DNA of 64,000 bases from Candidatus Omnitrophota bacterium (GTDB lineage: Bacteria; Omnitrophota; Gorgyraeia; Gorgyraeales; Gorgyraeaceae), in the NCBI GenBank assembly GCA_043814965.1, contig JBDRJN010000014.1:3084-67083 (forward strand). The letters are read 5' to 3'. The notes beneath the pieces were generated by a model, which ran no database searches, was not told the origin of the DNA, and was given only the letters and a program-made list of their open reading frames with translations. Below, one piece after another: positions 4,590 to 63,618 of this stretch (its first letter is position 1; each line of letters starts with the position of its first letter). A program made the position numbers and the translations under genes.

Positions 4590-6721
4590 ATATACTGCAG
4601 ATCCTTCCAGCGCTTGAAGTAGGCGGAGTTGAGACAGGGACCATCGATCTATCCCGTGAACTTATGAAACGGGGCCACAATGTCATCGTTGTCTCTAATG
4701 GCGGTAAGATGGTAAAGCATCTTGTAGACATGGAAGCCCGCCATATCAAGCTGCCTGTACACAAAAAGTCACTAGTGACTATTATAAAGATGATAAAGAG
4801 ATTAAGGTATATTATACAAGAAGAAAATGTAGATATTGTGCATGCAAGATCCAGGGTCCCTGCCATAATAGCTTTTTTTGCTGCACGTTCTACAAGAGCG
4901 AACTTTATAACAACAGCGCATGGTTATTATTCTACGCATCTATTGAGCAAGGTGATGGGATGGGGTAAATTTGTGATCGTCGCATCAACTATCATGGGAA
5001 GGCACATGATAGAGAATTTTAAAGTCCCTCATGAAAGGTTAAGGTTTATACCCAGGGGCGTTGACCTTGAAGGCTTTAATTTTAATCCACCGGATCAATC
5101 AGATGCAAAATCGGAATATAAGATAGGTATAGTAGGCAGGATCACTCCGATAAAAGGGCATAGTTTTTTCTTGCAGTCTATCGCAAGAGTAATAAGGATA
5201 TTTCCTAAAGTAAAGATCCTTATCGTAGGCGACGCGCCTAAGGAAAAGCCTGAATACAGGCGTAATCTGGAACTTCTTATAAAAAAACTTGATATAGAAA
5301 GATTTGTTGAGTTCCTGGGCTCCAGGGATGACATGCCTAAAATTATGTCTTCTCTTGATCTATTGGTCTCTTCTTCTGTGGGGCAGGAGGCATTTGGAAG
5401 AGTAATAATTGAAGCAGGCGCAAGCGGTGTGCCTGTTGTGAGTACGCGTATAGGAGGAGTTGTAGATATAATCGAGGATAACAAGACAGGCCTTTTAGTA
5501 AAACCTGGTGATATAAAAGAGATGGTGGATGCTATATTAAAAGTTTTAAAGGACAGGAATCTTGCCAGGAACCTTGCAATCGAAGCAAGAAAAAAGGTAG
5601 AAAAGGAATACAATCTTAATGCTATGGCAGAGCGTACTATCAAAGTCTATGAAGAAGCGATAGATAAGAAGCGGATATTGGTCATAAAACTTGGGGCAAT
5701 AGGGGATGTCATACTTTCCGTCCCGAGCCTAAAACTCTTAAGGAATAATTTTCCCAATGCCTTTATAAGCGTATTAGTGGGGAATGAGTCCAGGCATATA
5801 TTGAAAAAGTGTCCATACATAGACGATATAATACTATATGACAATAGATCCAGCAGCAACATAAGGTCTCTTGTAAAGATATCCAATACAATAAGATCCA
5901 AGGGGTTTGATATGTCCATAGACTTGCAGAATAATAAAATAAGTCATTTTATAGCCTGGTTCAGTTTTATACCTATGAGATCTGGTTATGATAATAAAAA
6001 ACTCGGGTTTTTGCTTAATAATGGTATCAAGTATTTAAATATCGCTTCCGGCCCCATAGAAGAACAATTCAGGATCCTCAAAAAAGCGGGGTGTGATACA
6101 TCATCAGCCTCGAGGAGATTGGAATTATGGCCTTCCAGGGAAGATTTTCTGTATGTGGACAATTTTTTAAAAAGTGAATGGATAGGTGAGGGCCAGGTAC
6201 TCATCGGGATAAATATAGGAGGAAGCTGGAAGACAAAAAGATGGCCTAAAAGAAATATCGCAAGGCTTATTGATATGTTTGCTTCAAAACATATAAGAGT
6301 TGTCATAACTGGCGCGGAGAATGAAAAGGCCTTGGCAGAAGAACTCAAGTGTATCACAAAATCAAAGATCATAGATGCGGTCTCAAAGATAGACATATTA
6401 CAGCTGGCTAGCCTTATAAAAAGGTGTAAAGTATATATTACCGGAGATAGCGCTCCTATGCATATAGCTTCGGCTATGGGAGTAGAGTTTATAGCACTGT
6501 TTGGGCCGACAGACCCCAGGAGGCATGTTGAGCCAACAGCTAAGGCGGCTGTTATAAAAAAAGACCTGGCCTGTGCACCTTGCTATAGGTCAAAGTGCAA
6601 GAATATCATCTGTATGGATAAGATCAGCGTAGATGAGATATATAGATTGGTGATGGAAAAAATAGGAGATAATAAATCCGAAATCCGAAATCAGAAATCC
6701 GAAACAGATCCAAGATCTTGA
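4586..6721 (+). CDS. bifunctional glycosyltransferase: N-terminal GT4 (GT-B) domain fused to a C-terminal GT9 heptosyltransferase domain
   Basis: The N-terminus has ILPALEVGGVETGTIDL and the EAFGRVIIEAGASGVPVV EX7E-like region (GT4). From about nt 5670 it has ILVIKLGAIGDVILSVP and GDSAPMHIASAMGVEFIALFGPTDP, as in WaaC/WaaF/RfaQ-type GT9. The last 15 codons overlap a heptamer repeat. Confidence 0.7.
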   Translation: MNILQILPALEVGGVETGTIDLSRELMKRGHNVIVVSNGGKMVKHLVDMEARHIKLPVHKKSLVTIIKMIKRLRYIIQEENVDIVHARSRVPAIIAFFAARSTRANFITTAHGYYSTHLLSKVMGWGKFVIVASTIMGRHMIENFKVPHERLRFIPRGVDLEGFNFNPPDQSDAKSEYKIGIVGRITPIKGHSFFLQSIARVIRIFPKVKILIVGDAPKEKPEYRRNLELLIKKLDIERFVEFLGSRDDMPKIMSSLDLLVSSSVGQEAFGRVIIEAGASGVPVVSTRIGGVVDIIEDNKTGLLVKPGDIKEMVDAILKVLKDRNLARNLAIEARKKVEKEYNLNAMAERTIKVYEEAIDKKRILVIKLGAIGDVILSVPSLKLLRNNFPNAFISVLVGNESRHILKKCPYIDDIILYDNRSSSNIRSLVKISNTIRSKGFDMSIDLQNNKISHFIAWFSFIPMRSGYDNKKLGFLLNNGIKYLNIASGPIEEQFRILKKAGCDTSSASRRLELWPSREDFLYVDNFLKSEWIGEGQVLIGINIGGSWKTKRWPKRNIARLIDMFASKHIRVVITGAENEKALAEELKCITKSKIIDAVSKIDILQLASLIKRCKVYITGDSAPMHIASAMGVEFIALFGPTDPRRHVEPTAKAAVIKKDLACAPCYRSKCKNIICMDKISVDEIYRLVMEKIGDNKSEIRNQKSETDPRS

Positions 6722-8672: not shown

Positions 8673-9669
8673 TCACATGAAACGTATTTTAGTAGTCAAT
8701 GTAAATTGGGTCGGAGATACTATATTTGCCACTCCTTTTATAAGATCTCTCAGGGAGACGTTTCCTCAGAGTTTTATTGCAGTGCTCACTCATCCCAGGT
8801 GCAAGGAGATACTTAGGGGAAACCCTAGCATAGACGAGGTGATATTGTTTGATGAAAAAAGTTGGAATCTTTTTAGAAGATTTTATATCATACCGCTTTT
8901 GAGGTCAAAAAAGTTTGATACCGCTTTTATATTGCGTAAGTCTTTGTCAAGGACGCTGCTGCTTAAATTATCCAGTATCCCCGAGAGGATAGGATATAGT
9001 AATAATAAAGCAGGTTTTTTATTGACAAAAAATGTCCCTGAACCAGGAAAGGTATTGCATAAGGTAGAGTATTTTTTAGGGCTTTTAAGGTCTATCGGCA
9101 TAAAACCAGGAAGCATAAGATATGAATTTTTTATAAATGAATCCGACAGAAAAGAGGCGTTGGAGCTGCTAAATTCTTTTGGGATAAAAGACAGCGAGGA
9201 TTTTATTGTTATCAATCCAGGCGGCAATTGGGATCTCAAGAGATGGCCGTTGGAATACTTTGCAGAATTAGGAGATGAGATATTCGATAGATTTCATATA
9301 AAAGTTGTCTTGAGCGGCGCATCAAAGGATATAGGATTATGCAATAAGATATCAAACCTGATGAAAACCAAACCTATCTTATTATGCGGAAAAACAAGCC
9401 TAAAGACACTAGGGGCGATCTTTGAAAGAGCAAAATATGTCATATCCGGCGATTCAGGGCCTATGCATATAGCAGTCAGCGCGGGTGCTAATGTAATAGC
9501 TTTGTTTGGCCCTACTTCCAGCGCTATAACAGGCCCTTATGGCGAGGGTAAGTATAAGGTCATTGAAAAGGAGATCGCCTGCAAAAAACCGTGTTATGAG
9601 CTTTCATGCAGTGATAATAGGTGCATGAAAGATATAACCGTAGAAGACGTTCTGAAGGAACTAAGGTAA
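8662..9669 (+). CDS. ADP-heptose:LPS heptosyltransferase (GT9)
   Basis: RILVVNVNWVGDTIFATP and GDSGPMHIAVSAGANVIALFGPTS match GT9. Confidence 0.75.
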   Translation: MMIDHMKRILVVNVNWVGDTIFATPFIRSLRETFPQSFIAVLTHPRCKEILRGNPSIDEVILFDEKSWNLFRRFYIIPLLRSKKFDTAFILRKSLSRTLLLKLSSIPERIGYSNNKAGFLLTKNVPEPGKVLHKVEYFLGLLRSIGIKPGSIRYEFFINESDRKEALELLNSFGIKDSEDFIVINPGGNWDLKRWPLEYFAELGDEIFDRFHIKVVLSGASKDIGLCNKISNLMKTKPILLCGKTSLKTLGAIFERAKYVISGDSGPMHIAVSAGANVIALFGPTSSAITGPYGEGKYKVIEKEIACKKPCYELSCSDNRCMKDITVEDVLKELR

Positions 9670-9988: not shown

Positions 9989-10975
9989 ATGAACGCTATG
10001 AAAATGGATAATATAAATAAGGTCCTATTTATCACGCTTAGCAATATCGGAGATGCGATACTGACATTGCCGGCATTGACATGCCTTAAGGATAATTTTA
10101 AGGATGCCAAAGTGGATGTAGTAGCAGGTCCAAGGTCAAAAGAGGTCTTCATAAAAGACCCCTCGATAAATAAAATATTTATATACGATAAACACGCTTC
10201 ATTAAAAGAAAAAATAGGTTTTGTAAAGAACCTGCGGAAGGAAAGATATGACCTAGCGGTGGATATGAAGACGAGCCTTATGCCGTTATTGGCGGGCGCT
10301 AGATATAGGAATAGTTTGATTAGCTTCAAACCCTCAGGCCTTAAACATAAAAGGCTTATTCATTTAAACAAGCTAAGGGGCCTTGGCCTGGCCTGTGGAA
10401 CCAGGAGGAATATTTATATAGATCAGGGCGATAGATCGAAGATAGATAACATACTTAAACAAAAAGGCGCCAAGGATACTGATACATTGATCGGTATCAG
10501 CCCAAGCTGTTTAAGCTTGACTAAAGAATGGAGAATGGATGGTTTTATAGAAGTAGTAAAAGGGCTGGTCAAAAAAGCCGATACCAGGATTATTTTAATA
10601 GGAGAAGAGACAAAAAAAGATGTATCAGGGCATATCTTAAAGAGTGTATCCAGCGCTAACATTATTGACTTAACAGGTAAAACCGATCTAGGCGAACTTT
10701 TTGCCGCTATAGAAAGGATGAAGATATTAGTTAGTTGTGACAGCGCATCTATGCATATAGCAAGTGATTTAGGGATCAGGGTAGTAAGCATCTTTGGCCC
10801 GACAGATCCTCTAGAATATGGGCCTGCTGGCAAATACAGTGTTGTGATACAGAAAAAACTTGACTGTGTTCCATGTAAAAGGCCTGCTTGCAGGTTCAAT
10901 AATGAATGTATGGATGAGATAAAGCCAGAAGAAGTGATCGAGGCGGTAAATAAATTACTTGAAAGCAATATGTAG
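9989..10975 (+). CDS. ADP-heptose:LPS heptosyltransferase (GT9)
   Basis: VLFITLSNIGDAILTLPAL and CDSASMHIASDLGIRVVSIFGPTDP match GT9. Confidence 0.75.
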   Translation: MNAMKMDNINKVLFITLSNIGDAILTLPALTCLKDNFKDAKVDVVAGPRSKEVFIKDPSINKIFIYDKHASLKEKIGFVKNLRKERYDLAVDMKTSLMPLLAGARYRNSLISFKPSGLKHKRLIHLNKLRGLGLACGTRRNIYIDQGDRSKIDNILKQKGAKDTDTLIGISPSCLSLTKEWRMDGFIEVVKGLVKKADTRIILIGEETKKDVSGHILKSVSSANIIDLTGKTDLGELFAAIERMKILVSCDSASMHIASDLGIRVVSIFGPTDPLEYGPAGKYSVVIQKKLDCVPCKRPACRFNNECMDEIKPEEVIEAVNKLLESNM

Positions 10976-18889: not shown

Positions 18890-20917
18890 TTGAAATATCC
18901 CAGGTCTTTCAATATCACTACTAAATTTATACTATGGTTTTTAGTCATCGCGCTAGTTCCTCTCATCATAGCTATATCCATAAGCTATAATAGTTCCCAG
19001 GCCGCATTAAGAAAAGAAGTTGCTAATAGCTTGGTAGCAATCGCAAACAATAAGGCCTATCAGATAGAATCGTTTCTCATCGAAAAGAAAAAGAATGTAA
19101 GTTTGTTATCTTATGACTCGGATATTATCGAGATAATGGGGGATTTCAATGATGTATTAGATAGATCCGGCTTTGATTCAGAGGAGTATATAGCCATAGA
19201 AGAAGAGCATAGGTCTTTGCTTACTTATTATAATAAGACCTTAGGTTATGAAGATATCTTTCTTGTAAGGCCAAATGGCGATGTAGCCTTTTCAGTGAAT
19301 AAAACAAAAGATGTTGTCTCGCTTTATGAGATCGCTTTATCTAAAAAACCTTCTGAACTTGTAAACATATTCATAGAGTCTAAAAAATCTTTAAAGATAG
19401 AGACGTCGGATTTCGAATATAATGATATTACAAATAGAGCAGCCTTATTTATAGGCTCCCCGTTGTTCAGGGGCGCTGAGTTTATCGGAGTGCTTATACT
19501 GAAGATGGACAATAGCGATGTATCTAGGTTTGTCCTGGATTATAAGGGCCTTGGTAAAACAGCCGAGACTATAGTAGCCTCCAAAATAAATAATGAGATA
19601 GTCTGTATTACTCCCCTAAGATTCGATAAAGATGCAGCATTTAAGAGAAAACTCCCTTTAGGTTCTAGAAATATGCATTATCTGCAGGATGCTGTCGAGG
19701 GAAAAGACGGCATAGGTATATTTACTGACTATAGAAATAACGATGCCCTCACAGTATGGAGACATCTCCCGTCTTTTCGCTGGGGTATGGCTGTAAAAAT
19801 GGATAGCGTAGAAGTCTTTAAATCAGCAAAGGACTTGAGAGACAGACTGATAGAAATAAGCCTTATTCTTTTGCTAGTGGTCATGATAATGGCTGTTGTC
19901 ATTGCAAGGTCTGTATCCAGCCCGATAAAGAACCTTACTAGGGTTTCAAAGGTCATCAGCAGGGGCAATCTTCTTGCGAGGGCAAAGGTCAATACAAAAG
20001 ACGAATTAGGTGAACTGGCAGAGTCTTTTAACTATATGACTGACAAGCTTATTGAGGCCAAAGCAAAAGTAGAAGAAAAAAACAATCAACTGCAAGAACA
20101 GAAGATATTACTTGAAAAAGTAAACAAAGAACTGGACAGTTTTGTCTATACTGTTTCACATGATCTTAAGACCCCGCTCAATGGCATATACGGTTTTACA
20201 GACCTACTTGAAAAAGATTATTTTGATAAAGTAGGTAAAAATGGACAGGAATACCTCGGGAGGATACGCCATGGCGTGGAAAGGATGCGGAGGCTCATAG
20301 AGGACCTTTTGGCTCTTTCCAGGATCAGTAGGATAAAGAATCCATTTGAAGATGTTGACGTGAATCAATTATTAGAATCTGTTATGGATAGGATAGAATT
20401 CGAGATAAAAAAGAACAATGTGGAGCTTTCTGTTGCAAAAGGCCTGCCTATATTGCATTGTGACAGGATTAAAATGGAAGAGGTGTTTCTTAATCTGATG
20501 ACCAACGCGATAAAATTTTCCTCGAAAGACAGGTCCAATGTACCAAAGATAGAGATAGGATATCATGATAGGCAGGATGCTTATGAATTTTATATAAAAG
20601 ATAATGGCATAGGGATAGAAAAGAAATATCATAAAGAAATATTTGACATCTTTAGAAGGCTTCACCATCAGAAAGAATACGAGGGGACAGGAGCTGGGTT
20701 AAGTATAGTCAAAAGGGTAATAGATGACCATAATGGCAGGATATGGGTAGAAAGTGAGCTGGGACAAGGCACGACATTTTGCTTTACTATTCCTAAAAAA
20801 GGCATGAAGCGAAAAAAACTCGGAGAGATATTGTTGGCAGAAGGAACTATTTCCAAAGAAGACCTCAAAAAAGCCCTAGAAAAACAGGGCATAGATGATA
20901 TTAATGTCTCTAGTTAA
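18890..20917 (+). CDS. sensor histidine kinase (TM - periplasmic Cache-like sensor - TM - HAMP - HisKA - HATPase_c)
   Basis: TTG start 1 nt after the receiver gene's stop. Two TM segments flank a roughly 280-aa extracytoplasmic domain. A HAMP-like linker is followed by an H-box (VSHDLKTPLNGI), an N-box (LMTNAIKFS) and a G-box (GTGAGLSIVKRVIDDHNG). Confidence 0.8.
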   Translation: MKYPRSFNITTKFILWFLVIALVPLIIAISISYNSSQAALRKEVANSLVAIANNKAYQIESFLIEKKKNVSLLSYDSDIIEIMGDFNDVLDRSGFDSEEYIAIEEEHRSLLTYYNKTLGYEDIFLVRPNGDVAFSVNKTKDVVSLYEIALSKKPSELVNIFIESKKSLKIETSDFEYNDITNRAALFIGSPLFRGAEFIGVLILKMDNSDVSRFVLDYKGLGKTAETIVASKINNEIVCITPLRFDKDAAFKRKLPLGSRNMHYLQDAVEGKDGIGIFTDYRNNDALTVWRHLPSFRWGMAVKMDSVEVFKSAKDLRDRLIEISLILLLVVMIMAVVIARSVSSPIKNLTRVSKVISRGNLLARAKVNTKDELGELAESFNYMTDKLIEAKAKVEEKNNQLQEQKILLEKVNKELDSFVYTVSHDLKTPLNGIYGFTDLLEKDYFDKVGKNGQEYLGRIRHGVERMRRLIEDLLALSRISRIKNPFEDVDVNQLLESVMDRIEFEIKKNNVELSVAKGLPILHCDRIKMEEVFLNLMTNAIKFSSKDRSNVPKIEIGYHDRQDAYEFYIKDNGIGIEKKYHKEIFDIFRRLHHQKEYEGTGAGLSIVKRVIDDHNGRIWVESELGQGTTFCFTIPKKGMKRKKLGEILLAEGTISKEDLKKALEKQGIDDINVSS

Positions 20918-20949: not shown

Positions 20950-21195
20950 AAGGTGAAATTTTTCCCTCGCAACATAGTATCATAAGAGTGTTACTCGGGA
21001 TCGTCTTTTAAGGAAGTATTTTTATATAGGGCTAAAAAAACTCGTCCGTCAATATGTGTGGCGGACTCAAACAGTAGTAGGGGGGCCTTAAGGCTCCCCT
21101 ACCGTAGAAAAGGTTTAGGCGAGAGCGAAAAAGAAAATAGAGTAACCCTGCACCGTACTGGTGCAGGGCACGCTGGGAAAATTTTACGTCCTCGA
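20950..21195 (+). repeat. structured repeat element copy A (about 245 nt; conserved hairpin core AAAAACTCGTCCGTCAATATGTGTGGCGGACTC; two further perfect stem-loops)
   Basis: Shares a 40-nt near-identical core, a similar 5' segment (GAAANTTTTCCC..ATAGT) and similar core spacing with the element at 38010-38263. It contains hairpins at 21041-21068, 21076-21103 and 21150-21172 and is bounded by an imperfect IR (GAAATTTTTCCC / GGGAAAATTTT). The overlapping ORF 21032..21223 is judged spurious. Confidence 0.5.
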
Positions 21196-21301
21196 AAGTA
21201 GTACACACAAAGCATGCTAGCAATAATATAGCTTAAACCAAGCTTAAACCGCCACAATTATATTGACTACTATACGCTATATATGCTAGTATATTTTCTC
21301 T

Positions 21302-22195
21302 ATGGCGAAGAAGAGGGCGAAAAGGCTTATTCTATTCTGGCTCTTTAGCTTTCTGAGTATCGTAATTCGGATCTTACCCCTAAGGTTTGCACTTTTTGTA
21401 GGAAAATTTTTAGGAAAGATATCTTTTTATCTACTCAAGAAAGAAAGAGATACAGCCTTAAAAAATCTTGATATTGCGTATGGCGATTCCAAGTCTTTAG
21501 AAGAGAAAAATGCCTTGATCAGGAAGGTATTCGAGAATCTCGGAAAGAACCTGATAGAGATAGTCTCTCTTCCAAAGTTCAATGCTTCTAACATAGATAA
21601 GTATATATCTTGCAGGGGGATCGAAGTTATAGAAGATTTCTTAAATAAAGGAAAAGGCGGAATAGCCCTTAGCGCTCATTTTGGGAACTGGGAACTGATG
21701 GCGCACTATTTTGGGATAAAAGGCTATTCGGTAAATGTAGTTGCCCGCCGTGTAAGGATGGAAGAATTTGAAAGGTTCCTTGTCAGTATAAGAAAAAGGA
21801 ACAATGTAAATGTACTATATCGAGATGGTTCTATAAAGGATATACTAGCCCTTCTCAAGAAAAATCAGTTTATAGGGATAATGCCTGATCAGGATATGGA
21901 TAGCGTATCGGGCGTATTTGTGGATTTTTTTGGGAAAAAGGCCTTTACGCCTAATGGACCGGCAATACTGCATTCTTTGATAAAAAGCCCTATTATACCA
22001 TGTTTCATGATAAGAAAAGGTTTTGGCCATGAAATATGCATAGATAGAGAATTAAGATTGGCTAGTACTGATAACAAAGAGAAGGATATCCTGGATAACA
22101 CCGCCAAATATACGAAAATCATAGAAAGTTATATCAGGAATAATCCAGAGCAATGGGTCTGGTTCCATGACAGGTGGAAGACCAGGCCGGATTAG
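21302..22195 (+). CDS. lipid A biosynthesis acyltransferase (LpxL/LpxM/HtrB family), second paralogue
   Basis: IALSAHFGNWELMAHYFG and IMPDQD match the LpxL family. Length is 297 aa. Confidence 0.75.
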   Translation: MAKKRAKRLILFWLFSFLSIVIRILPLRFALFVGKFLGKISFYLLKKERDTALKNLDIAYGDSKSLEEKNALIRKVFENLGKNLIEIVSLPKFNASNIDKYISCRGIEVIEDFLNKGKGGIALSAHFGNWELMAHYFGIKGYSVNVVARRVRMEEFERFLVSIRKRNNVNVLYRDGSIKDILALLKKNQFIGIMPDQDMDSVSGVFVDFFGKKAFTPNGPAILHSLIKSPIIPCFMIRKGFGHEICIDRELRLASTDNKEKDILDNTAKYTKIIESYIRNNPEQWVWFHDRWKTRPD

Positions 22196-25466: not shown

Positions 25467-26600
25467 ATGGAAAAGAAATATCTATTAACGCCTGGCCCTA
25501 CGCCTGTTCCGCCTGTTGCTTTGGAAGCCATGGCTAGGCCTATTATTCAACATAGGACATCGCAGTTCCAGGATATATTAAAAGAAGCAGAAGAAAACCT
25601 TCAATACGTATTTCAGACCAAGGAAAAGGTCTTTATACTGGCTTCTAGCGGCACAGGAGCTATGGAAGCCGCTGTCAGCAATGTGCTTTCTTCCGGAGAC
25701 AAGGCCTTAGTAGTGCGCGCTGGTAAATTCGGAGAGAGATGGGGCGAGATATGTTCTGCTTATAAGATAGACTTCGTAGCTATAGATGTGGAATGGGGAA
25801 GATCAGTAGATCCAGAGGATATAAAAAAGATATTGGATAAAGATAGCAAGATAAAGGCAGTATATGTGACTCTTTGCGAGACTTCAACTGGCGTTACAAC
25901 TGATATAAAGGCTATAGCTAACATCACAAAAGACAGGGATGTAATAATAGTTGTAGATGCAATAAGCGCCCTGGGAGCAGTACCTCTCAAGACCGATGAA
26001 TGGGGTATTGATATAGTGGTAGCTGGTTCTCAGAAAGGGCTCATGATACCTCCAGGGCTTGCTTTTATAAGTATGAGCCAAAAGGCTCTTAAGAGATTAG
26101 GAACATCCGATCTTCCAAAGTTCTATTTCGATCTGAAGGCCTATAAAAAATCTATCGATAAATGTGATACACCATATACGCCTTGTGTAAATCTTATTAT
26201 CGGTTTAAACGAGACCCTTAAGCTCATAAAAAAAGAAGGCATTGATAATGTCATAGCCGGCCATCAAAAAAATTCCCTAGCTGTGAGAAACGCAATGAAG
26301 GCATTAGGGCTGGAGCTTTTTAGCCCTGATTTCTATTCTGATGCCGTAACTTCAGTAAAGGTCCCGGATGGAATAGATGGCGGGAAGATAGTAAAGACGA
26401 TGAGAGATAAATATGGAGTAGCTATTGCTGGAGGACAGGGCTCTCTCAAGGGAAAGATATTTAGGATAGCCACAATGGGGTATATTACAAAATCTGATCT
26501 AGAAGTCGGTATAACAACGCTTGAGATAGTCTTGGCTGAGCTAGGTTATAAATTTGAAAAAGGCGTAGGAGTAAAGACATTTAAAGAAAGTTTGAAGTGA
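25467..26600 (+). CDS. class V aminotransferase (probable phosphoserine/serine-glyoxylate aminotransferase type)
   Basis: AGT class V fold. PLP-Lys region around GSQKGLMIPPGLAFIS. Adjacent to serA. Confidence 0.65.
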   Translation: MEKKYLLTPGPTPVPPVALEAMARPIIQHRTSQFQDILKEAEENLQYVFQTKEKVFILASSGTGAMEAAVSNVLSSGDKALVVRAGKFGERWGEICSAYKIDFVAIDVEWGRSVDPEDIKKILDKDSKIKAVYVTLCETSTGVTTDIKAIANITKDRDVIIVVDAISALGAVPLKTDEWGIDIVVAGSQKGLMIPPGLAFISMSQKALKRLGTSDLPKFYFDLKAYKKSIDKCDTPYTPCVNLIIGLNETLKLIKKEGIDNVIAGHQKNSLAVRNAMKALGLELFSPDFYSDAVTSVKVPDGIDGGKIVKTMRDKYGVAIAGGQGSLKGKIFRIATMGYITKSDLEVGITTLEIVLAELGYKFEKGVGVKTFKESLK

Positions 26601-26606
26601 TAAAAA

Positions 26607-26707
26607 CTCGAAATACTAAATTCGAAATCCGAAACTCGAAACAATGTCTAAATTTAAATTCGAATTTATAATTTGTTTCGGATTTCGGGTTTCGTGCTTC
26701 GAATTTC
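26607..26707. repeat. inverted arrays of tandem CGAAAYC heptamers (hairpin-forming intergenic element)
   Basis: The 5' arm CTCGAAATACTAAATTCGAAATCCGAAACTCGAAACA (26607-26643) is complementary to the 3' arm TGTTTCGGATTTCGGGTTTCGTGCTTCGAATTTC (26674-26707). The arms flank a 30-nt AT-rich spacer. The element starts 7 nt after the aminotransferase stop codon. Confidence 0.7.
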
Positions 26708-26739
26708 ATAAAATATATATTTAAACCAGGGAGATAGAT

Positions 26740-35770: not shown

Positions 35771-36931
35771 ATGAAAAATATAGCTATTTTAGGTTCAACC
35801 GGGTCTATAGGCATAAACACGCTTGATGTTATATCTAGCCTGAGAAGCAGGTTTAAGGTGGATGCGCTTTCCTGCTATTCAAATATAGAGCTTTTATTAA
35901 AACAGGTTAAGTCATTCAAGCCAAGATATGTATGCGTAGTGGACCTCAAGAAAGCAAAGGAAGCTAAAAAAAGACTTTCCAGCAAGAATATAAGATTTTA
36001 TGAGGGTAAAGACGGCCTTCTTGAGATGGTGAATGATATTAAGCTCGATATAGTCATTGTAGCTATAGTAGGGTCTTCCGCGCTCTTACCTATTATGGCA
36101 TCTATAAAACATACAAAGAGGCTTGCGCTTGCAAATAAAGAAGCGCTTGTGATGGCAGGAAGTATTTTATTGGAGAAGGCAAAAGCGGACAATGTCGAGA
36201 TACTTCCTATAGATAGCGAACACAACGCGATTTTTCAATGTATAGGATCCGGAAAAGATACTGAGTTAAAAAAGATATACCTTACTGGTTCGGGCGGCCC
36301 ATTTTTACATATGCCAAAAAAACATTTTAACAGGATAACTCCCAAAGAAGCTATCAGGCATCCAAAATGGAGGATGGGCAAGAAGATATCAGTTGACTCA
36401 GCCACTATGATGAATAAAGGCTTAGAGATCATAGAGGCCCATCATCTTTTTGATGTACCTTCATCTAGCATAGAGGTTCTGGTGCATCCTGAGGCAGTTA
36501 TCCACTCGATGGTAGAGTTTTGCGATGGTTCCATATTAGCACAGCTGGGTAATTGCGATATGAGGCTTCCTATACAATATGCTCTTACATACCCGGACAG
36601 GTTATCTTCAAATGTACAAAAACTTAATTTTTCAAAGCTTCCTAGCATCAATTTTTATAAGCCTGACATTAAAAGATTCCCGTGCCTTGAGCTTGCATAC
36701 AGCGCTGCCAGGCATGGCAAGACATATCCTTGTGTCTTGAATGCATCTAATGAGATCGCTGTCAGGGAGTTTTTGAAAAATAAAATAAGATTTATGGATA
36801 TACCCAGGGCCATAGAAAAGGTCTTGAGCTTACATAAAAGCGTGAACGACCCTGGCTTGAACAACATATTAGAATCCGACAATTGGGCTAAAGAAAAAAC
36901 AAAGGAGATCTTAGGTGCTTTCAGCGGTTAG
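35771..36931 (+). CDS. dxr: 1-deoxy-D-xylulose 5-phosphate reductoisomerase
   Basis: IAILGSTGSIGINTLDVI and LANKEALV match Dxr. Confidence 0.9.
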   Translation: MKNIAILGSTGSIGINTLDVISSLRSRFKVDALSCYSNIELLLKQVKSFKPRYVCVVDLKKAKEAKKRLSSKNIRFYEGKDGLLEMVNDIKLDIVIVAIVGSSALLPIMASIKHTKRLALANKEALVMAGSILLEKAKADNVEILPIDSEHNAIFQCIGSGKDTELKKIYLTGSGGPFLHMPKKHFNRITPKEAIRHPKWRMGKKISVDSATMMNKGLEIIEAHHLFDVPSSSIEVLVHPEAVIHSMVEFCDGSILAQLGNCDMRLPIQYALTYPDRLSSNVQKLNFSKLPSINFYKPDIKRFPCLELAYSAARHGKTYPCVLNASNEIAVREFLKNKIRFMDIPRAIEKVLSLHKSVNDPGLNNILESDNWAKEKTKEILGAFSG

Positions 36932-38000
36932 TTTTATAGGCGTACTTAGTGTTTTGGTCATCGTACATGAATTCGGGCATTTTATTGTGGCAAAAAGGCT
37001 TGGGATATGTGTTGAAAAATTTTCTATAGGATTTGGGCCTGAGGTAATAGGTATTACAAAGAATGGAACGAGATACATTATCTCTCTCATACCTCTTGGA
37101 GGCTATGTCAAGCTTAAGGGGGAAAACGAAGCTGAAGGATTAAAAGGTGAAAGATCCGAATATCTTTCAAGGACAGTGGGAGAAAGGGCGAGAGTTATTT
37201 TTGCCGGGCCATTGCTTAATTATGTACTGGCATTTTTAGTCTTTTCTTTTGTCTTTATGGCCGGTTCCCCGACACTTACTTCCACTATTGGCAAAATATT
37301 ACCTGGTTATCCAGGAGAGACATCGGGCATTAAAGAAGGAGACCGTATATTAAAGATAAATGATATAGAGGTCAAATATTGGGATGATGTCACGCGAATT
37401 ATACATACTAATAAAGAAAGTGAACTTTATCTTCTGATAGAGAGAGGTCACGAGATATTGAATATCAAGGTATCCCCTAAGGAAGAGGATATGAATACAG
37501 TTTTTGGGACAAAGAAAAGAGTAGGCATCGTAGGTATTATGCCAAACGATGATATCGTATATATAAGATACGATTTTTTTAGATCATTCTATATGGGGGG
37601 TAAAAAATTAGTAGACCTCAGTTATCTGACAGTGAGAGCTCTATGGGCAAGTATAACAGGCAAGGTCCCTTTCAAACAATCCATCACAGGGCCTGTCGGC
37701 ATATTTTATATTACAGGAGAAGCAGCCAAGCTTGGTATAGTATATCTGCTTCAACTCATGGGGGTCTTGAGCATGTCTTTGGCTATATTCAATCTTCTGC
37801 CGTTTCCAGTACTCGACGGAGGGCATCTTTTTTTCCTTGCTATAGAAAAAATACGCAGAAAACCTATATCTATAAAAGTCCAGGAAAATGTGACCCAGGC
37901 TGGGTTTATATTTTTGATGGCGCTGATGCTTTTGGTTGTTTATAATGACCTTATAAGATTCGGCATATTCGATAAGATAGCGGGTTTTTGGCGGAAGTGA
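36915..38000 (+). CDS. rseP: RIP site-2 zinc metalloprotease
   Basis: HEFGHFIVAKRLG (HExxH), a PDZ domain and the LDGG motif are present. Confidence 0.85.
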   Translation: MLSAVSFIGVLSVLVIVHEFGHFIVAKRLGICVEKFSIGFGPEVIGITKNGTRYIISLIPLGGYVKLKGENEAEGLKGERSEYLSRTVGERARVIFAGPLLNYVLAFLVFSFVFMAGSPTLTSTIGKILPGYPGETSGIKEGDRILKINDIEVKYWDDVTRIIHTNKESELYLLIERGHEILNIKVSPKEEDMNTVFGTKKRVGIVGIMPNDDIVYIRYDFFRSFYMGGKKLVDLSYLTVRALWASITGKVPFKQSITGPVGIFYITGEAAKLGIVYLLQLMGVLSMSLAIFNLLPFPVLDGGHLFFLAIEKIRRKPISIKVQENVTQAGFIFLMALMLLVVYNDLIRFGIFDKIAGFWRK

Positions 38001-38009
38001 GATTTATTT

Positions 38010-38263
38010 AAAGCTAAAAAGGAGCTTGTTCACTCATGAGAAAACTTTTCCCCTATAGTGCCAGTATATATTTTGACACTTGGGGCCGCCTTTTATTCTG
38101 TGTTTTGCCGGGACTCGAAAAACTCGTCCGCCAATATGTGTGGCGGACTTCAGACAGTTTCGAGTCTTTTAGCCTCATAAAATGTGACATAGAAACCGCC
38201 AAAACACTTCATAAAAGGCTAAATTTTCTAATTCGCGAACAATCATCCTTTTTAGCTTAAATA
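38010..38263 (+). repeat. structured repeat element copy B (about 254 nt; terminal 13-bp IR AAGCTAAAAAGGA / TCCTTTTTAGCTT; conserved hairpin core at 38113-38155)
   Basis: The core GAAAAACTCGTCCGCCAATATGTGTGGCGGACTTCAGACAG is near-identical to 21035-21075. It is nested in a second IR (GACTCGAAA..TTTCGAGTC). The overlapping ORF 38036..38260 is judged spurious. Confidence 0.5.
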
Positions 38264-38315: not shown

Positions 38316-39401
38316 ATGACACGACAGATAAAAGTTGGAAAAGTTAAGATCGGCGGCGGGGCTCCTGTGTCAGTGCAGTCTATGGTAAAGACTGAAACGA
38401 CTAAGGTCCAGTCAGTCATTAAAGAGATAAAGGCCTTGGAGGATGTTGGGTGTGAGATCGTAAGGCTTGCAGTAAAAGATAATAAAGGAGCTTCTTGTTT
38501 AAAAAAGATAAAGAGTTCTGTCAATATACCCATTGTAGCTGATATTCATTATGACTATAGGCTCGCGCTTTTAGCTATTGAAAACGGGGTGGATAAGATC
38601 AGATTGAACCCGGGCAATATCTATAAAAAAGAACATGTCTTTGAGGTCGCTAGGCATGCTAAAAAGAATAGGATCCCTATTAGAGTAGGGGTGAATTCCG
38701 GGTCATTAAAGACACAAGACACAAGACACAAGACACAAGACACAAGACACAAGTCACAAGACACAAGTCACAAGTCACAAGTTGATATTATGGTGAAGTC
38801 AGCGTTAGATTATATAAAGCTCTTGGAGAAGGCTGGATTTTACGATATAATAGTCTCATTAAAGGCATCGGATGTGCTTATGACAATAGATGCTTATAGA
38901 AAGTTTTCTAAGGCATCAGATTATCCTCTTCACCTTGGCGTAACTGCAGCAGGCCCTAAATCATCTGGCCTGGTCAAGTCTTCTATAGGCATAGGGGTGT
39001 TATTACTAGAAGGCATAGGGGATACGATCAGGGTATCCTTGACAGGGAATTCTTCCAGCGAAGTCATGGCTGCGCAGAATATTTTGCAGGCTATAAACTT
39101 AAGGAGATTTTATCCCGAGATCATCTCTTGCCCAACATGCGGGAGGTGCCAGGTAGATTTGAGCCAGATAGTGGCTAAAGTAGAGGAACGGATTACGGAT
39201 TACGGGTTACGGGTTACGGGTAAAAAAAATCCGAAGATCGCTATAATGGGCTGTGAAGTCAATGGCCCGGGTGAAGCAAAAGAAGCTGATTTCGGCATTG
39301 CATTTGGCAAAGGGGCCGGAGTATTGTTCAAAAAAGGTAAGATTATAAAGAGAATCGAAGAAAAAGACACTATCAAGACACTCTTACGCTATTTAGGGTA
39401 A
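38316..39401 (+). CDS. ispG: 4-hydroxy-3-methylbut-2-en-1-yl diphosphate synthase (GcpE), carrying in-frame heptamer-repeat insertions
   Basis: KVGKVKIGGGAPVSVQSM and the C-terminal 4Fe-4S cysteines (CPTCGRC..GCEVNGPGE) match IspG. The 9 x ACACAAG tandem at 38711-38773 encodes TQDTRHK-type repeats in a surface linker. Confidence 0.9.
   Translation: MTRQIKVGKVKIGGGAPVSVQSMVKTETTKVQSVIKEIKALEDVGCEIVRLAVKDNKGASCLKKIKSSVNIPIVADIHYDYRLALLAIENGVDKIRLNPGNIYKKEHVFEVARHAKKNRIPIRVGVNSGSLKTQDTRHKTQDTRHKSQDTSHKSQVDIMVKSALDYIKLLEKAGFYDIIVSLKASDVLMTIDAYRKFSKASDYPLHLGVTAAGPKSSGLVKSSIGIGVLLLEGIGDTIRVSLTGNSSSEVMAAQNILQAINLRRFYPEIISCPTCGRCQVDLSQIVAKVEERITDYGLRVTGKKNPKIAIMGCEVNGPGEAKEADFGIAFGKGAGVLFKKGKIIKRIEEKDTIKTLLRYLG
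38711..38773 (+). repeat. 9 tandem heptamers (ACACAAG / TCACAAG) inside ispG, in frame (63 nt)
   Basis: Direct reading: (ACACAAG)x5, TCACAAG, ACACAAG, (TCACAAG)x2. A second array at 39186-39222 is (CGGATTA)x2(CGGGTTA)x2. Confidence 0.9.
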
Positions 39402-41286: not shown

Positions 41287-44200
41287 ATGACAGTATGTTC
41301 TTTAAGGAAAACGTGTTCTGTCTTTTTAATAGTGATCTTTACTATTACTAATATTGCCTATGGAGCTCCCAGCGAAAGGTCCTTTTTTAAGAATAAAAAA
41401 GTAGATTATAAGAAATTAAGCACCCAAAGCCAAGAACAGCTCGAGAAGAAAAAGGCTGTTTTAAGCGGTGAAGATGTAAAAAAGACAAGTAAAAAACCTT
41501 CCAAGGCCAAGCAAATAGATTTTAGCGCCCATCTAAGCGATATATCAGAGATAAATATCCCCGGCGAATTAGGAAGAGTCGTTGAGGTATATAAAGCCCC
41601 TGATTCTGAAAAAGACAAGAACAGGCTTGTAGTACATATCCAGGACCTCCATGCCAATCCTGAGGCTACACTTAACCTGGCAAGTATATTGGAGATATTG
41701 GTAAAAGATTATAACCTGGATCTAATATGTTCTGAAGGCGCGGAAGGAGAGGTTGATACATCAAGCGTTTCCAGTTTTCCTGACGCTGAGATCAGGAAAA
41801 AGACAGCAAAGCTATTTGTAAATTCAGGAGAACTTACAGGAGAAGAATACCTTTCTATTACCAAATACCCGGATCTTCCTATATGGGGAATAGAAGATAA
41901 GGATATATATTTCAATAATATAGTCCAGTTCAATAAGATAATGCAGTTTTCCAACTCCAGTTATGTCTTTATCTCGCAGTGCACAAATGCGCTGGATGCG
42001 TTGAAGCCTTACATATACTCAAAAGAGATCCTGGAATTGGACCAGAAAGAATCCGAATACGATAATGGTAATCTGGAGACATCTTTGTACCTGGATTATG
42101 TCTTGCCTTATGTGGAGCAGTTCAATATATCGAAAGACAAATATAAAAATATCTCTCTTTTAACAGAGACGATGGCTAAAGAAAAGACTATTGACCAGCA
42201 AAAGGTGATGAAAGAATCGCAAGACCTTTTAATGGACCTTCAGAATATGCTTTCAAGAAAAGGCGGAGAATCTGACCTGGAAGCCCTGATAGCCAAGGCA
42301 GAGCTTTTTAAGAATAAGAAAATATCGCCATTCTCTTTCTATAATTACCTGAAGGGCCTGGCTCAGAAGCACCTGAAGGAGAAATCAGAGAGCTATACGT
42401 ATCTAAATGAATTTATAGATTATCTTACCAAGGTAAACGATCTTGATGCTTCAAAGCTTTTTACTGAGATCGGGGAATTAAGTTATGAGATAAAAGATAA
42501 TCTTGCCAAAAAAGACGAAGAAAAGCTTCTTACAAAGGTTATACGTAATGCAAAGTTCTTGACAGGGTTTTTTAGCCTCAAGATATCCAATGAAGAGCTT
42601 GACTACTACCTGGAAGACAAACCTTCTTTTGAAGTATCATTCTTTAAGGAATTCCTAGAGCCCAACCTTAAAAAATATAATATTACGAGTTACGTGGATT
42701 ATAACCCTGAATTTATAGACAATAAGTTCAGCGAAATAGAGGAGTTTTACGGTACTGTAAAATCGCGAGATTTTTCCATGTTCAATAATTCCATGTCTCA
42801 GATCGAAAGTAGAAGAGCAAAAGTCGCAGCCCTTATATCAGGAGGTTTTCATACCAGGGGCATAACAAAACTATTAAGAGAAAAAGGTTATTCTTATGTA
42901 GTTATATCCCCTTACTCTTCGCAGGAGACAGATGAAGAGAACTACCACTTCCTTCTCTCAGGACAGCGTAAACCAATAGAAGAGCTTATAAGGCAGCTAG
43001 ACGTAGAAGAGACAGTCGATAGATTATCTTCCAATGATAATCTGCGCAGTTTAATGCGTTTCGGGAATAATACAGTAGAGGCCTGGAATAATTCTGTAGT
43101 ACCTCAAAAGATAGCTGAGATATTGGGATTAAAAGTAGAAGACGTACAATTAGAGCCTTTATTGAATGATGCTGCAATTGTGCTGGGATTAAGCAGCGGC
43201 GCAGAAGCATGGCATAGTTCTCCGGTAGGTATGGAAGTAAGGTCTCCAAGAAAAGGAGAGATAATATTAAAGTTCGATGATAATAGTTATGTAAAGATGA
43301 CGAGCCTTGGAGAGGTAAAACGTGTAGATAAAAAAGAATTCAGAGGAAAGACCACTCTTAGCATAACTCCTAATGTAGACGGAACTATAAATGTAGCTGA
43401 AACTGATAGAGGCAAAGGTTCGCCCCTGGAGTTGTTAAAATTCATGGTGGATGGGACATATTACGAAGGGGAGTCCATATCTAAAGCAGATTTAGTAGCT
43501 GGAAGGTCTTTTTCTGTATCTACTATAGACCTAGAGATAAAAAGCCTTACAGAACTCGGACTATTAAAAAAGAATAGTGATGGGACATATGAACTTACGA
43601 GCTATATAGGCCTAGAGCAATATAATAATATTAAAGCAGTTACAGGTCCTATAGTACAAGTTAATGGTAAAAACGAGGGATTAAATCGTTATAGGATAGA
43701 CGACCTGTCAGAAGATAAAAAGAATGAATTTAAAAATGCCATAGACTTTGCTGTAACTTACCAAAAGACCCCATCAAACTTTCTAAAAAAATTAATCCTT
43801 GCAGGAGGCAAGCTTGATATCAAAGGTACCGGTGAATCTGGCGAGGCCCTTGCGCTTTATTATGCGGATCTAGCTGAGACTTTTGCAGGACCTACTGGAA
43901 TAGAATCTGTGGCATTGAGTAAAAATATTACATTTGCTGAGGCAGGGCTTATAGCAGATATTGTAGATCATGCCAGCGCGCTTAATATTACAGGAACCAG
44001 AAACAGCATAAGTCAAGCTTTTGAAACAGCAAAAAATCTTTCTGTATCACGAGAGGAGCCTAGATACAGTATAAAAGAGACGTCACTAAGTTCAGATTTT
44101 GAAATAGCAAGAAATCTTCCTGATATGTATAGAGATCTTTCCCCGGAAAAGATCAAAGACAAGATCATAATAGTACGAGGCAATTTAAACGCGCCTTTGG

Positions 44201-50399: not shown

Positions 50400-50437
50400 T
50401 GCGACAATACTGTAAGGCACACTTCAGTGCGCCAAAG
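50398..50437 (+). promoter_or_regulatory. conserved 40-nt leader motif copy 1 (upstream of nusA): CTGCGACAATACTGTAAGGCACACTTCAGTGCGCCAAAG
   Basis: 36/40 identical to 53768-53807 upstream of trpS. It contains the hairpin GGCACACT..AGTGYGCC. It ends 23 nt before the nusA ATG. Confidence 0.55.
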
Positions 50438-53767: not shown

Positions 53768-53807
53768 TTGCGACAACACTGTAAGGCACACTTTAGTGTG
53801 CCAAAAG
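53768..53807 (+). promoter_or_regulatory. conserved 40-nt leader motif copy 2 (upstream of trpS): TTGCGACAACACTGTAAGGCACACTTTAGTGTGCCAAAAG
   Basis: See copy 1. It is preceded by the nested hairpins GCAAAGGC..GCCTTTGC and GGCGCAT..ATGTGCC. It ends 11 nt before the trpS ATG. Confidence 0.55.
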
Positions 53808-53817
53808 TCAATATCAT

Positions 53818-54798
53818 ATGAAAAAACGTATCTTAAGCGGCATGAGGCCTACAGGGCCACTTCATCTGGGACATCTATTTGGAGCGCTTTCGAATTGGGT
53901 AAAGCTCCAGGATGATTATGATTGCTTTTTTATGGTTGCGGACTGGCATGCGCTTATGAGTGAATATGAAGGCCCAAAGGACATGCCTCGATATACATTA
54001 GAATGTGTTGCTGATTGGATAGCATCTGGAATAGATCCTGAAAAAAGTGCTATATTTGTGCAATCTCATATAAAAGAGCACCTGGATCTATTTATGATAT
54101 TTTCAACATTTGTGCCGCTTGGGTGGCTTGAGAGGTGTCCTACGTATAAGGAGCAGCTTAGGGAGGTCACTACTAGGGAGCTTCATACCTATGGGTTTTT
54201 AGGATATCCTGTTCTCCAGGCTTCTGATATATTGCTGTATCATGCAGATATTGTCCCTGTAGGAAGAGACCAACTCCCGCACCTGGAACTTACTAATGAT
54301 ATAGGGGCAAAGTTCAACAATCTATACGGGAATACATTTAATGAGATAAAGCCGCTTCTTACTAATACTCCAAAACTATTAGGTACAGATGGACGGAAGA
54401 TGAGCAAATCCTATAGCAATTTTATTGCGCTCGGTGATACTGAAATAGATATTAAGAAAAAATGCTCCTCTATGTTTACAGACCCCAAGAGGATAAAGCT
54501 GACAGACAAAGGCCATCCGGATGAATGTAATCTTTATTCATATTTTGAGCTTTTTAAAAAAGATCGTTTAGAGGATGTATATGAATATTGCATAAATGCA
54601 AAAAAAGGCTGTACAGAGTGTAAAAGCGGACTAGCAAAGGTTATCTCGGATTACCTGTCTGATATAAGAAACAAGAGAGAAAAGCTCCTGAAAGATAAAG
54701 ATACGCTGATAGATATATTGAGAGAAGGAACCAAGAAGGCAAGTAAGGTAGCATCAGAGACGATAAAAGAAGTTAAGCAGAAAGTCGGTTTAACTTAG
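53818..54798 (+). CDS. trpS: tryptophanyl-tRNA synthetase
   Basis: The HIGH-type motif (PTGPLHLGHLFG) and the KMSKS motif match class I TrpRS. Confidence 0.9.
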   Translation: MKKRILSGMRPTGPLHLGHLFGALSNWVKLQDDYDCFFMVADWHALMSEYEGPKDMPRYTLECVADWIASGIDPEKSAIFVQSHIKEHLDLFMIFSTFVPLGWLERCPTYKEQLREVTTRELHTYGFLGYPVLQASDILLYHADIVPVGRDQLPHLELTNDIGAKFNNLYGNTFNEIKPLLTNTPKLLGTDGRKMSKSYSNFIALGDTEIDIKKKCSSMFTDPKRIKLTDKGHPDECNLYSYFELFKKDRLEDVYEYCINAKKGCTECKSGLAKVISDYLSDIRNKREKLLKDKDTLIDILREGTKKASKVASETIKEVKQKVGLT

Positions 54799-54900
54799 TT
54801 TATAGTTTATGGTTTATTGTTTATGGAAATAGATTTTGATCCTAAAACTCTAAACCCTTAATACGATCTATAAACTATATACTATCAACCATAAACTAAA
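54796..54900. repeat. inverted arrays of tandem GTTTATR heptamers (hairpin-forming intergenic element)
   Basis: The 5' arm TAGTTTATAGTTTATGGTTTATTGTTTATGG overlaps the trpS stop codon. The 3' arm CTATAAACTATATACTATCAACCATAAACTAAA is complementary. The spacer is 41 nt. Confidence 0.7.
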
Positions 54901-54903
54901 AAA

Positions 54904-59630: not shown

Positions 59631-59681
59631 TGGGCTGCAAGTTACACGTTACATGTGTCTTGTGTCTTGAAACTTATGACC
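59631..59681. repeat. ACAAGNC-family heptamer hairpin element ending in CTTGAAACTTATGAC
   Basis: GCAAGTTACACGTTACATGTGTCTTGTGTCTTGAAACTTATGAC begins 14 nt after the aroF stop codon. Confidence 0.65.
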
Positions 59682-61959: not shown

Positions 61960-62000
61960 GGTCACAAGTCACATGCGGCTTGTGGCTTGAAACTTGTGAC
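61960..62000. repeat. ACAAGNC-family heptamer hairpin element ending in CTTGAAACTTGTGAC
   Basis: GTCACAAGT at 61961-69 pairs perfectly with ACTTGTGAC at 61992-62000. The 5' arm is GTCACAAGTCACA. It starts 5 nt after the ispH stop codon. Confidence 0.7.
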
Positions 62001-63617: not shown

Positions 63618-63618
63618 A

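Follow-up and report, generated by a model that had tools for sequence, protein, structure and literature searches.

A candidate two-level nested repeat in the lpxL and rseP-ispG spacers of an Omnitrophota genome: palindromic elements carrying a dispersed mini-hairpin

INTRODUCTION

What fills two long intergenic spacers in the genome of an uncultured Omnitrophota bacterium (Candidatus Omnitrophota bacterium; GenBank assembly GCA_043814965.1, contig JBDRJN010000014.1)? The spacers lie in a 64-kb stretch of this genome (referred to here as the window; positions are counted from its first base) and hold two strongly folding elements on the + strand, namely, element A (20953 to 21187), upstream of lpxL, and element B (38008 to 38261), upstream of ispG. 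An original prediction treated A and B as homologous copies of ~240 nt with a common hairpin core and left three readings side by side, i.e., a repeat family resembling miniature inverted-repeat transposable elements (MITEs), a family of small RNAs (sRNAs), or cis-acting leaders of the downstream envelope and isoprenoid genes.

Here we propose, with middling confidence, that the two spacers contain a two-level nested repeat, in which a palindromic, ERIC/MITE-like insertion carries at its tip a separately spreading REP/SDR-like mini-hairpin. Copies of the large element were counted within the window and the loci collected in the searches described below (designated by L numbers), and the mini-hairpin was sought in genome, metagenome, and viral sequence collections.

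RESULTS

The two sites are best linked by a direct repeat of 39 nt (21029 to 21067 and 38111 to 38149) that is 90% identical between them. The 32-nt core pattern had two exact matches in the window and none in 100 dinucleotide-preserving shuffles, and the near-identical core of the original prediction is thus borne out. Its 8-bp hairpin, GTCCGYCA-ATATGTG-TGGCGGAC, was located on the + strand at 21044 to 21066 in A (GTCCGTCA-ATATGTG-TGGCGGAC; pattern match) and at 38126 to 38148 in B (GTCCGCCA-ATATGTG-TGGCGGAC; pattern match and inverted repeat). At one position of the stem in A, the + strand has a G-U pair where the - strand has a C-A mismatch. Together with the preceding base, the core hairpin is identical in A and B at 23 of 24 positions, and identity over the remainder of the elements is at most 57%. 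A 5' segment that had also been noticed (GAAAnTTTTCCC..ATAGT) was found approximately 80 nt 5' of the core in both elements. The core, with its 8-bp hairpin, is a real feature that chance does not explain.

The homology of A and B extends less far than the ~240 nt predicted. It stood for the left arm and the core (~120 nt): nhmmer aligned positions 20956 to 21076 of A (+ strand) to positions 38042 to 38159 of B only (E = 7.6e-8), and the identity of the 5' arms was 0.57 (shuffle maximum, 0.51). It failed for the 3' halves, in which similarity was no higher than that of shuffled sequence. Terminal inverted repeats, expected at both copies, were present at B (16 nt, 94% complementary); the terminal pair of A (13 nt, 85%, A/T rich) was at chance level, being matched by several chance pairs within the same 400 nt.

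The open reading frames (ORFs) inside both copies look spurious, as had been suspected. Pfam gave nothing for either, the copy-B ORF (38036 to 38260) had no homologue among 5.8 billion proteins, and its frame is disrupted by indels in an orthologous element described below. With Rfam 15 at gathering thresholds, no family was reached in the whole 64-kb window (the tRNA model included), in keeping with the earlier failure to recognise RNase P, tmRNA, SRP, or 6S RNA by eye. An E-value-mode search of A and B gave only weak unrelated matches (all ≤21 bits). Taken as a whole, the original observation is partly confirmed.

Element B is an imperfect palindrome of ~254 nt that folds as a branched rod (-91.3 kcal/mol; z = -9.5 versus shuffled sequence). 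Its left (TTAAAGCTAAAAAGGA, 38008 to 38023) and right (TCCTTTTTAGCTTAAA, 38246 to 38261) terminal inverted repeats pair to form helix 1. Further in, the inner left arm (GCCTTTTATTCTGTGTTTTGCCGG, 38088 to 38111) pairs with the inner right arm (CCGCCAAAACACTTCATAAAAGGC, 38196 to 38219) over 24 nt with 83% complementarity (helices 4 and 5), and the apical arm (38112 to 38166) consists of a stem (GACTCGAAA/TTTCGAGTC; perfect 9-bp inverted repeat; helix 6) around the core module. All of these features are given on the + strand. The element is bounded on both sides by TAT (..TAT, TTAAAGCT...AGCTTAAA, TAT..), a 2- to 3-bp match that is uninformative in A/T-rich DNA.

The position of B upstream of ispG was as predicted: it lies between rseP (36915 to 38000) and ispG (38316 to 39401) in the cluster dxr-rseP-ispG-proS, to which relatives add cdsA upstream. 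B is probably transcribed as part of the operon mRNA, because the neighbouring genes are all on the + strand, the ancestral spacer was tiny (see below), and a scan of the region detected neither a promoter-like nor a terminator-like site on the + strand between the element and ispG. An intrinsic terminator was not found on the + strand; the core is followed by a T run on the - strand only. A strand test on A, B, and the orthologous element of the closest relative gave no strand signal: the + strand gives the better fold for A and the - strand for the other two, with equal G-U counts. Given that both strands fold about equally, the pairing in B could be kept at the level of either RNA or DNA.

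A sequence at the 3' end of rseP (TTTTGGCGGA, 37986 to 37995) is complementary both to the core's left arm (38127 to 38134) and to 38196 to 38204, and it is kept in the closest relative. This complementarity may be a coincidence or may bear on repeat targeting.

Comparison with related genomes indicates when B arrived. Between rseP and ispG, the spacer spans 315 nt in the window, compared with 364 nt in the closest relative (GCA_043821705.1, locus L056; IspG 71% identical), the sole relative with a long spacer at this junction. Elsewhere in Omnitrophota, the spacer measures 27 nt (L057 and L058), 59 nt (L059, L060, and L066), or 1 nt (L064), and in L065 the two genes overlap by 56 nt. Relatives with 62 to 68% protein identity have the same gene order and a tight junction, and the element is missing from the junction in six of seven relatives. 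Given that the element occurs only here and in L056 and that the junction is tight elsewhere, B would have been inserted in the common ancestor of both.

Since that insertion, B has evidently been maintained by purifying selection on both sequence and pairing. The L056 element (950 to 1236) can be aligned to B from end to end (77% identity in a global alignment; 81% over MAFFT columns) and adopts the same branched-rod fold (-110.6 kcal/mol; z = -8.05). This similarity is far above that of synonymous sites: third codon positions of ispG are 45% identical between the window and L056, and the spacer immediately to the right of the element is unalignable. The RNAalifold consensus of the two sequences has 69 pairs, of which 11 are changed on both sides and 6 on one side (via G-U); no pair is broken. 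A control in which the 3' partners were shifted by 1 to 3 columns yielded only 0 to 1 double changes. Compensatory changes are present in helix 1; L056 retains helices 4 and 5 as well as helix 6, with double-sided changes at 2 pairs of the inner arms and at 2 more of the apical stem. The covariation check that had been suggested for copies in related genomes thus came out in favour of B, for two sequences only. B is closer to this ortholog than to its paralog A.

At the tip of the rod, the position that holds CGTCCGCCAATATGTGTGGCGGAC in B is occupied in L056 by GCCACCGC-AAAATCTGGC-GCGGTGGC, with an N10 loop, between the kept flanks GAAnAACT and TTCrGACAG. Given that the tip is shared by A and B and is replaced in L056, the simplest account would be a recent installation or homogenisation in A and B. 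The core is therefore most simply regarded as a separate, exchangeable module rather than an ancient functional core.

The spacer of L056 contains, between the element and ispG (1236 to 1309), a small palindrome (CGGACCCCGGGTCCG) and a heptamer tract of CAATACC-type units of its own, which suggests that repeat turnover is ongoing at the junction.

Element A has a composite structure: its left arm shares homology with B, and the core module and two unrelated hairpins make up the rest. These two stem-loops, both of which had been predicted, lie on the + strand at 21077 to 21102 (GTAGGGGGGCCTT/AAGGCTCCCCTAC; 13-nt arms, 92% complementary) and at 21146 to 21168 (CCCTGCACC-GTACT-GGTGCAGGG; 9 bp, perfect). 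The first has no counterpart in B, L056, or any collected locus, and a counterpart of the second is absent from the other collected loci. The RNA fold of A (-81.9 kcal/mol; z = -4.15) owes its score mostly to three local hairpins.

A is preceded by a histidine kinase gene (18890 to 20917) and followed, as predicted, by lpxL (21302 to 22195) and then lptC, all on the + strand; lpxL-lptC continue in relatives as lptB-tig-clpP. The spacer 5' of lpxL is 384 nt here and 63, 109, and 139 nt in three relatives, in which the upstream gene is different; none of the three has an A-like element at this site. A promoter-like site for lpxL (TTGACT-18-TAGTAT, 21263 to 21292) lies downstream of A, and its -35 region is overlapped by a possible degenerate, flipped core fragment (CCGCCACAATTATATTGAC, 21249 to 21267, + strand), which may be kin to the core. 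Thus, both A and B are present here and absent from most orthologous sites, as insertions would be. We propose that A may be a composite or decayed relative of B.

Searches for more copies, which the original prediction had called for, succeeded for the core module and added only the L056 ortholog for the large element. No further large element was detected by nhmmer with B plus the L056 element, or with A, in the window and all collected loci. For the module, one genome per GTDB species (596 Gb) was scanned with the pattern CGTCCGNCAANNNGTGTGNCGGAC (19 specified bases), for which ~4 chance matches are expected under uniform composition. This resulted in 16 loci, of which 13 were taken as true, and a metagenome scan provided 39 more loci. 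Three matches, in Streptomyces (L003), an alphaproteobacterium (L012), and Geobacteraceae (L013), were set aside as chance matches. The true GTDB loci were all in metagenome-assembled genomes (MAGs), i.e., two labelled Planctomycetales, Omnitrophica WOR_2, Elusimicrobiota, Stahlbacteria, and two unclassified bacteria. Five loci were found in binchicken_co21_390 (labelled Planctomycetales), two in Omnitrophica WOR_2, and two to three in some others. An IMG/VR scan with the same pattern gave no matches. A full-text literature search, both with the sequences of the core and its flanks and on palindromic repeats in Omnitrophota, returned only unrelated primer matches. Possible resemblances to a Tn7 terminal sequence (TGTGGGCGGAC), to the tRNA 3' end or T-arm, and to SRP domain IV carry no weight here.

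The module, GTCCGCCA-N7-TGGCGGAC, spans 23 nt, with an 8-bp stem that is identical everywhere and a 7-nt loop. The loop bases A...GTG are constant by design of the search pattern and are not a result. The middle loop triplet is uniform within each genome, i.e., AAT in binchicken_co21_390 (5 of 5 loci), GAA in WOR_2 (2 of 2), and TAT in the window (2 of 2), and varies between genomes (AAA, TAA, and others also occur). The same loci also hold clusters of relaxed CCGCCA-N7-TGGCGG variants, at numbers well beyond those expected (16 hexamer copies in L050, for instance, versus 0.9). The loop was found flipped between identical asymmetric flanks in two pairs of loci, namely, L014 (..cccaccGTCCGCCAAAATGTGTGGCGGACgaaacagtggggg) versus L011 (..cccaccGTCCGCCACACATTTTGGCGGACgaaacagtggggg) in the same MAG and L051 versus L046. 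Complementary but mutually unrelated flanks often lengthen the hairpin, such as heptamer arrays (WOR_2; L007 and L008) and CCCCCAC/GTGGGGG (the planctomycete-labelled MAG), and the flank pair GATTGCTTCG../..CTCGCAATGAC surrounds the module in several lineages.

The genes next to the module are ordinary (folE, folB, mscL, an ompA-family gene, and a deaminase gene), with the hairpins occupying spacers inside operons in mixed orientations relative to neighbouring genes. Apparent cases of the module inside long ORFs were discarded because the ORF starts had been extended too far. Likewise, a role as a DNA-uptake sequence was rejected for this genome, given that single 8-mer sites are not enriched in the window. 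The module is thus a short hairpin unit that is dispersed in both orientations and nested in other repeats, as SDR- and REP-like repeats are. Tip replacement and genome-specific loops point indirectly to its mobility. A strictly empty orthologous site for the module was not found among the loci; a tip swap, flipped loops, and one base with many tips were found.

When 20 of the collected loci were run against Rfam, the only informative match was an RNase P RNA gene in L011 (2544 to 3112; 130 bits versus a gathering score of 100), which has one copy of the module inside it. The copy lies within 102 nt that take the place of 12 nt in the model; as read from the consensus structure line, this expansion would correspond to the P9 region. 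A second expansion in the same gene has the same CCCCCAC..GTGGGGG base with a different tip. This gene, from binchicken_co21_390, is 569 nt long, versus 367 positions in the model, with expansions of 102, ~36, and 125 nt. The expansions are made of repeat-type hairpins that are also scattered in the intergenic spacers of that genome.

The base GATTGCTTCG-[tip]-CTCGCAATGAC carries many tips, with CTTCG the commonest and the core module occurring sometimes. An Omnitrophota relative (L062) has this base tipped by a short GTCCGCC-TAA-GGCGGAC. Among the matches listed (L071 to L150), the base GATTGCTTCG-[0-30 nt]-CTCGCAATGAC was present in >120 viral-classified IMG/VR contigs, often several times per contig, with at least 99 distinct tips and at least 185 copies among those matches. 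It also occurs in L001, L012, L015, L030, L051, and L062. No published description of this base was found.

Two further loci contain repeated halves of the module. One is a viral contig (L067; IMGVR_UViG_3300012682_000358) in which at least nine direct or inverted copies of TGGCGGAC occur within ~160 bp (2530 to 2690). They lie directly 3' of a gene whose product combines NrS-1 polymerase and AAA_25 helicase-type domains. This cluster looks like an iteron-bearing origin and is built from the octamer that forms the arms of the core. The other is L027 (600 to 740), which has tandem arrays such as GGATGTGTGGCGGATGGC (three units) and GGATGGCGGACCGGACT (two units); here the core's right half (GTGTGGCGGA) serves as the unit of a direct repeat.

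The window itself is rich in other repeats. It contains 11 tandem heptamer tracts of at least three units, and intergenic hairpins with inverted heptamer-array arms are present at 26596 to 26710 (26623 to 26700 for the heptamer-armed hairpin) and 54796 to 54902, as well as at 59640 to 59680, 61960 to 62000, and 63613 to 63675. The arm units include AAATTCG../..GTTTCGG, TAGTTTA/CTATAAA, and the GTCACAA type. Heptamers also run in frame within ispG, at 38695 to 38785 (AAGACAC/AAGTCAC, ~13 units) and 39188 to 39215 (ACGGATT, four units). The former tract encodes KTQDTRH-KTQDTRH-KSQDTSH in a variable linker of IspG, where similar but shorter inserts occur in two homologues (P0003 and P0006) and none in a third (P0002).

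A 37-nt repeat (TGCGACAAYACTGTAAGGCACACTTYAGTGYGCCAAA, 92% identical) that forms a small hairpin was found at 50400 to 50436 and 53769 to 53805, both of which look intergenic. A repeat family ending in CTATGCATATAGC has members at 6415 to 6468, 9446 to 9473, and 10708 to 10761, two of which share 54 nt at 70% identity. Immediately 3' of proS lies a single ORF of 2,740 aa (41287 to 49509).

DISCUSSION

Of the three readings originally offered, the MITE-like repeat fits best: both elements are insertions relative to related genomes, B is palindromic, and the core belongs to a dispersed hairpin family. We suggest that the arrangement has two levels. At the first, A and B would be ERIC/MITE-like palindromic DNA insertions peculiar to this Omnitrophota lineage, with B having entered the rseP-ispG junction of the cdsA-dxr-rseP-ispG-proS cluster in the ancestor common to this bacterium and its closest known relative. 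At the second, the 23-nt module would spread or be homogenised separately within genomes, at the tips of various hairpins, where it could be flipped and exchanged. Such spread would require a DNA-level mechanism aimed at hairpin tips, which may be insertion or template switching/gene conversion.

By analogy with other co-transcribed repeats, B would have its selected role as a long RNA hairpin in the operon. It may serve as a processing site, as an exonuclease barrier, or as a means of uncoupling the rseP and ispG halves of the transcript.

Several observations weigh against this reading. With three known examples of the large element (A, B, and the L056 element), two of them orthologous, the statistics on covariation are thin. 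In B and in the L056 element, the two strands fold equally, so RNA and DNA are not distinguished as the selected form. The module clearly tips a longer hairpin in only 11 of 41 distinct copies (z < -2, shuffled flanks), and the count of enclosing pairs in ±160-nt folds was not discriminating. No transposase, RAYT, or Y1-transposase domain was found among the genes beside the densest clusters, nor was an autonomous parent element found by nhmmer on the collected loci or among neighbouring genes. No target-site duplication was demonstrable in the A/T-rich flanks, where TAT or TAA is ambiguous. Finally, an 8-bp stem that is invariant across phyla fits a sequence-specific binding site equally well, and half-site arrays do occur in L027 and L067.

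The rival that survives best, which we consider unlikely, is that B (and perhaps A) is a lineage-specific structured noncoding RNA, i.e., an sRNA or a cis leader or riboswitch-like control of ispG and lpxL, with the core as a functional part. Purifying selection and compensatory changes in B would be expected of such an RNA, as would the extreme fold z-scores of B and the L056 element, and both copies lie 5' of envelope or isoprenoid genes. However, the orthologous site is empty in six of seven relatives for ispG and in three of three for lpxL, and the stretch in which A and B agree most is the one swapped for an unrelated hairpin in L056. A and B lack homology in their 3' halves, the promoter-like site of lpxL lies downstream of A, and the spacers between element and start codon are not conserved. 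Equal folding of both strands and the empty Rfam search also argue against an RNA family.

The leader version of this rival, one of the three original readings, is unsupported, given that the elements are missing upstream of the same genes in most relatives and that orthologous loci have no conserved 5' untranslated region position for them. The sRNA version holds in part: selection and compensatory changes speak for it at B, but no promoter or terminator delimits a discrete + strand RNA.

More doubtful is a reading of the core as an operator or iteron (CCGCCA-N7-TGGCGG) that would be recognised as double-stranded DNA by a dimeric protein, either widespread in these phyla or borne by a mobile element; the location of the core within palindromes would then be incidental. 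Invariant half-sites around a variable spacer would fit such a protein, TGGCGGA stands in direct tandem arrays in L027, and an iteron-like TGGCGGAC cluster lies beside the primase-polymerase/helicase gene of the viral contig L067. Against this, the flanks that lengthen the hairpin differ among copies yet stay complementary. The sites lie between unrelated housekeeping genes and in an RNase P RNA gene, unlike a regulon, single 8-mer sites are not enriched in the window, and L067 is one case.

It is very improbable that B reflects a - strand sRNA that starts from promoter-like sites at 38322 to 38265 and ends at the core as an intrinsic terminator. There is indeed a T run after the core hairpin on the - strand (GAGTTTTTCG in B and GAGTTTTTTT in A), the terminator scan flags the B core, and two - strand promoter-like sites stand just upstream in that orientation. 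This promoter count is not significant (2 found versus 1.1 expected), the T run of L056 is weak (AAGTTCTTCG), and the promoter region is unalignable. At A, a C-A mismatch interrupts the - strand hairpin, upstream of which (in that orientation) there is no - strand promoter-like site. Such an sRNA would also leave the conservation and covariation of the left arm unexplained, and other copies of the module are without a T run.

Least credible is that the elements are neutral relics of dead MITEs with a core likeness due to chance or low complexity: the arms are indeed A/T rich and of low complexity and the terminal repeat of A is weak, but the absence of the core pattern from 100 shuffles, the presence of the same 23-mer in dozens of unrelated contigs, and the conservation of B far above synonymous sites contradict this for B and the core, which leaves it possible for the 3' half of A.

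The nested-repeat reading may be compared with several known systems. ERIC elements (or IRUs) of Enterobacteriaceae are imperfect palindromes of ~127 bp located in transcribed intergenic regions, and co-transcribed REP, ERIC, and Correia elements influence transcript processing, stability, or uncoupling as hairpins. Like ERIC, B is a palindromic long hairpin in an operon spacer that is present or absent at orthologous sites, is conserved above the neutral level, is probably transcribed given its operon context, and exists in variants with internal insertions at fixed points. Unlike ERIC, the elements described here are about twice as long and branched, have no sequence similarity to it, are known in three copies, carry a separately spreading tip module, and reside in an uncultured Omnitrophota bacterium.

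Bacterial MITEs include Correia elements (CREE) of Neisseria, RUP, BOX, and the cyanobacterial Nezha. Terminal inverted repeats, a length of 100 to 400 bp, an intergenic and noncoding nature, and a strong hairpin if co-transcribed are shared with the elements here. The differences are that no clear target-site duplication, parent insertion sequence, or recent copies were found here and that A and B are old and diverged.

The closest likeness at the second level involves SDRs. Elhai and colleagues reportedly described, in 2008, SDR hairpins slightly longer than 20 nt within tandem heptamers and minitransposons of Nostoc. The module here is comparably nested in heptamer-armed hairpins (L007 and L008) and in a MITE-like element. 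SDR5 inserts at a precise point within the HIP1 motif (PMC4390886), and SDRs are reported from Nostocaceae only (PMC5861425). In contrast, the same 8-bp stem occurs here across MAGs of at least four phylum-level groups, and its loop flips.

REP, BIME, and REPIN sequences, associated with RAYT transposases, form species- or genus-specific families with a conserved 5' tetranucleotide of the GTAG type (PMC3116915). The module resembles them as a short palindrome found in both orientations, in operon spacers between housekeeping genes, and in mosaic clusters. It differs in being without a conserved flank, and no RAYT was seen among the genes neighbouring any copy.

STRR heptamers of heterocyst-forming cyanobacteria occur in the RNase P RNA gene as well, to judge from the title of Vioque 1997 as cited in PMC2858038. 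The heptamer tracts and arms of the window are similar in kind, and the repeat-derived hairpin in L011 expands a peripheral helix of RNase P RNA. The phylum and the heptamers are different here, and the core is a single inverted pair, the tandem array of L027 excepted. We know of no described mechanism of mobilisation for units so small, and the sole precedent known to us is the SDR of cyanobacteria, as one family.

A and B match no known RNA family, are not leaders, and are best filed as a new form of known kinds of bacterial intergenic repeats. For annotation, they account for spurious ORFs and for long spacers that seem "empty" in MAGs of Omnitrophota, and are to be called neither genes nor riboswitches. 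B is also a candidate for a selfish repeat that has been exapted as an RNA structure inside the dxr-rseP-ispG-proS operon; if so, it would exemplify a nested repeat co-opted as a selected operon RNA structure.

It is possible, at a rather low level of confidence, that the module is a self-spreading ultra-small element, or the recognition hairpin of a widely distributed machinery, that targets hairpin tips (including helices of RNase P RNA) and flips in place. A self-spreading module would carry the SDR phenomenon across phyla and would point to an undescribed, hairpin-targeted process of DNA insertion or conversion. Such a mechanism, if found, would bear on the origin of bacterial tandem heptamers and mini-hairpins, a question open since STRR sequences were described.

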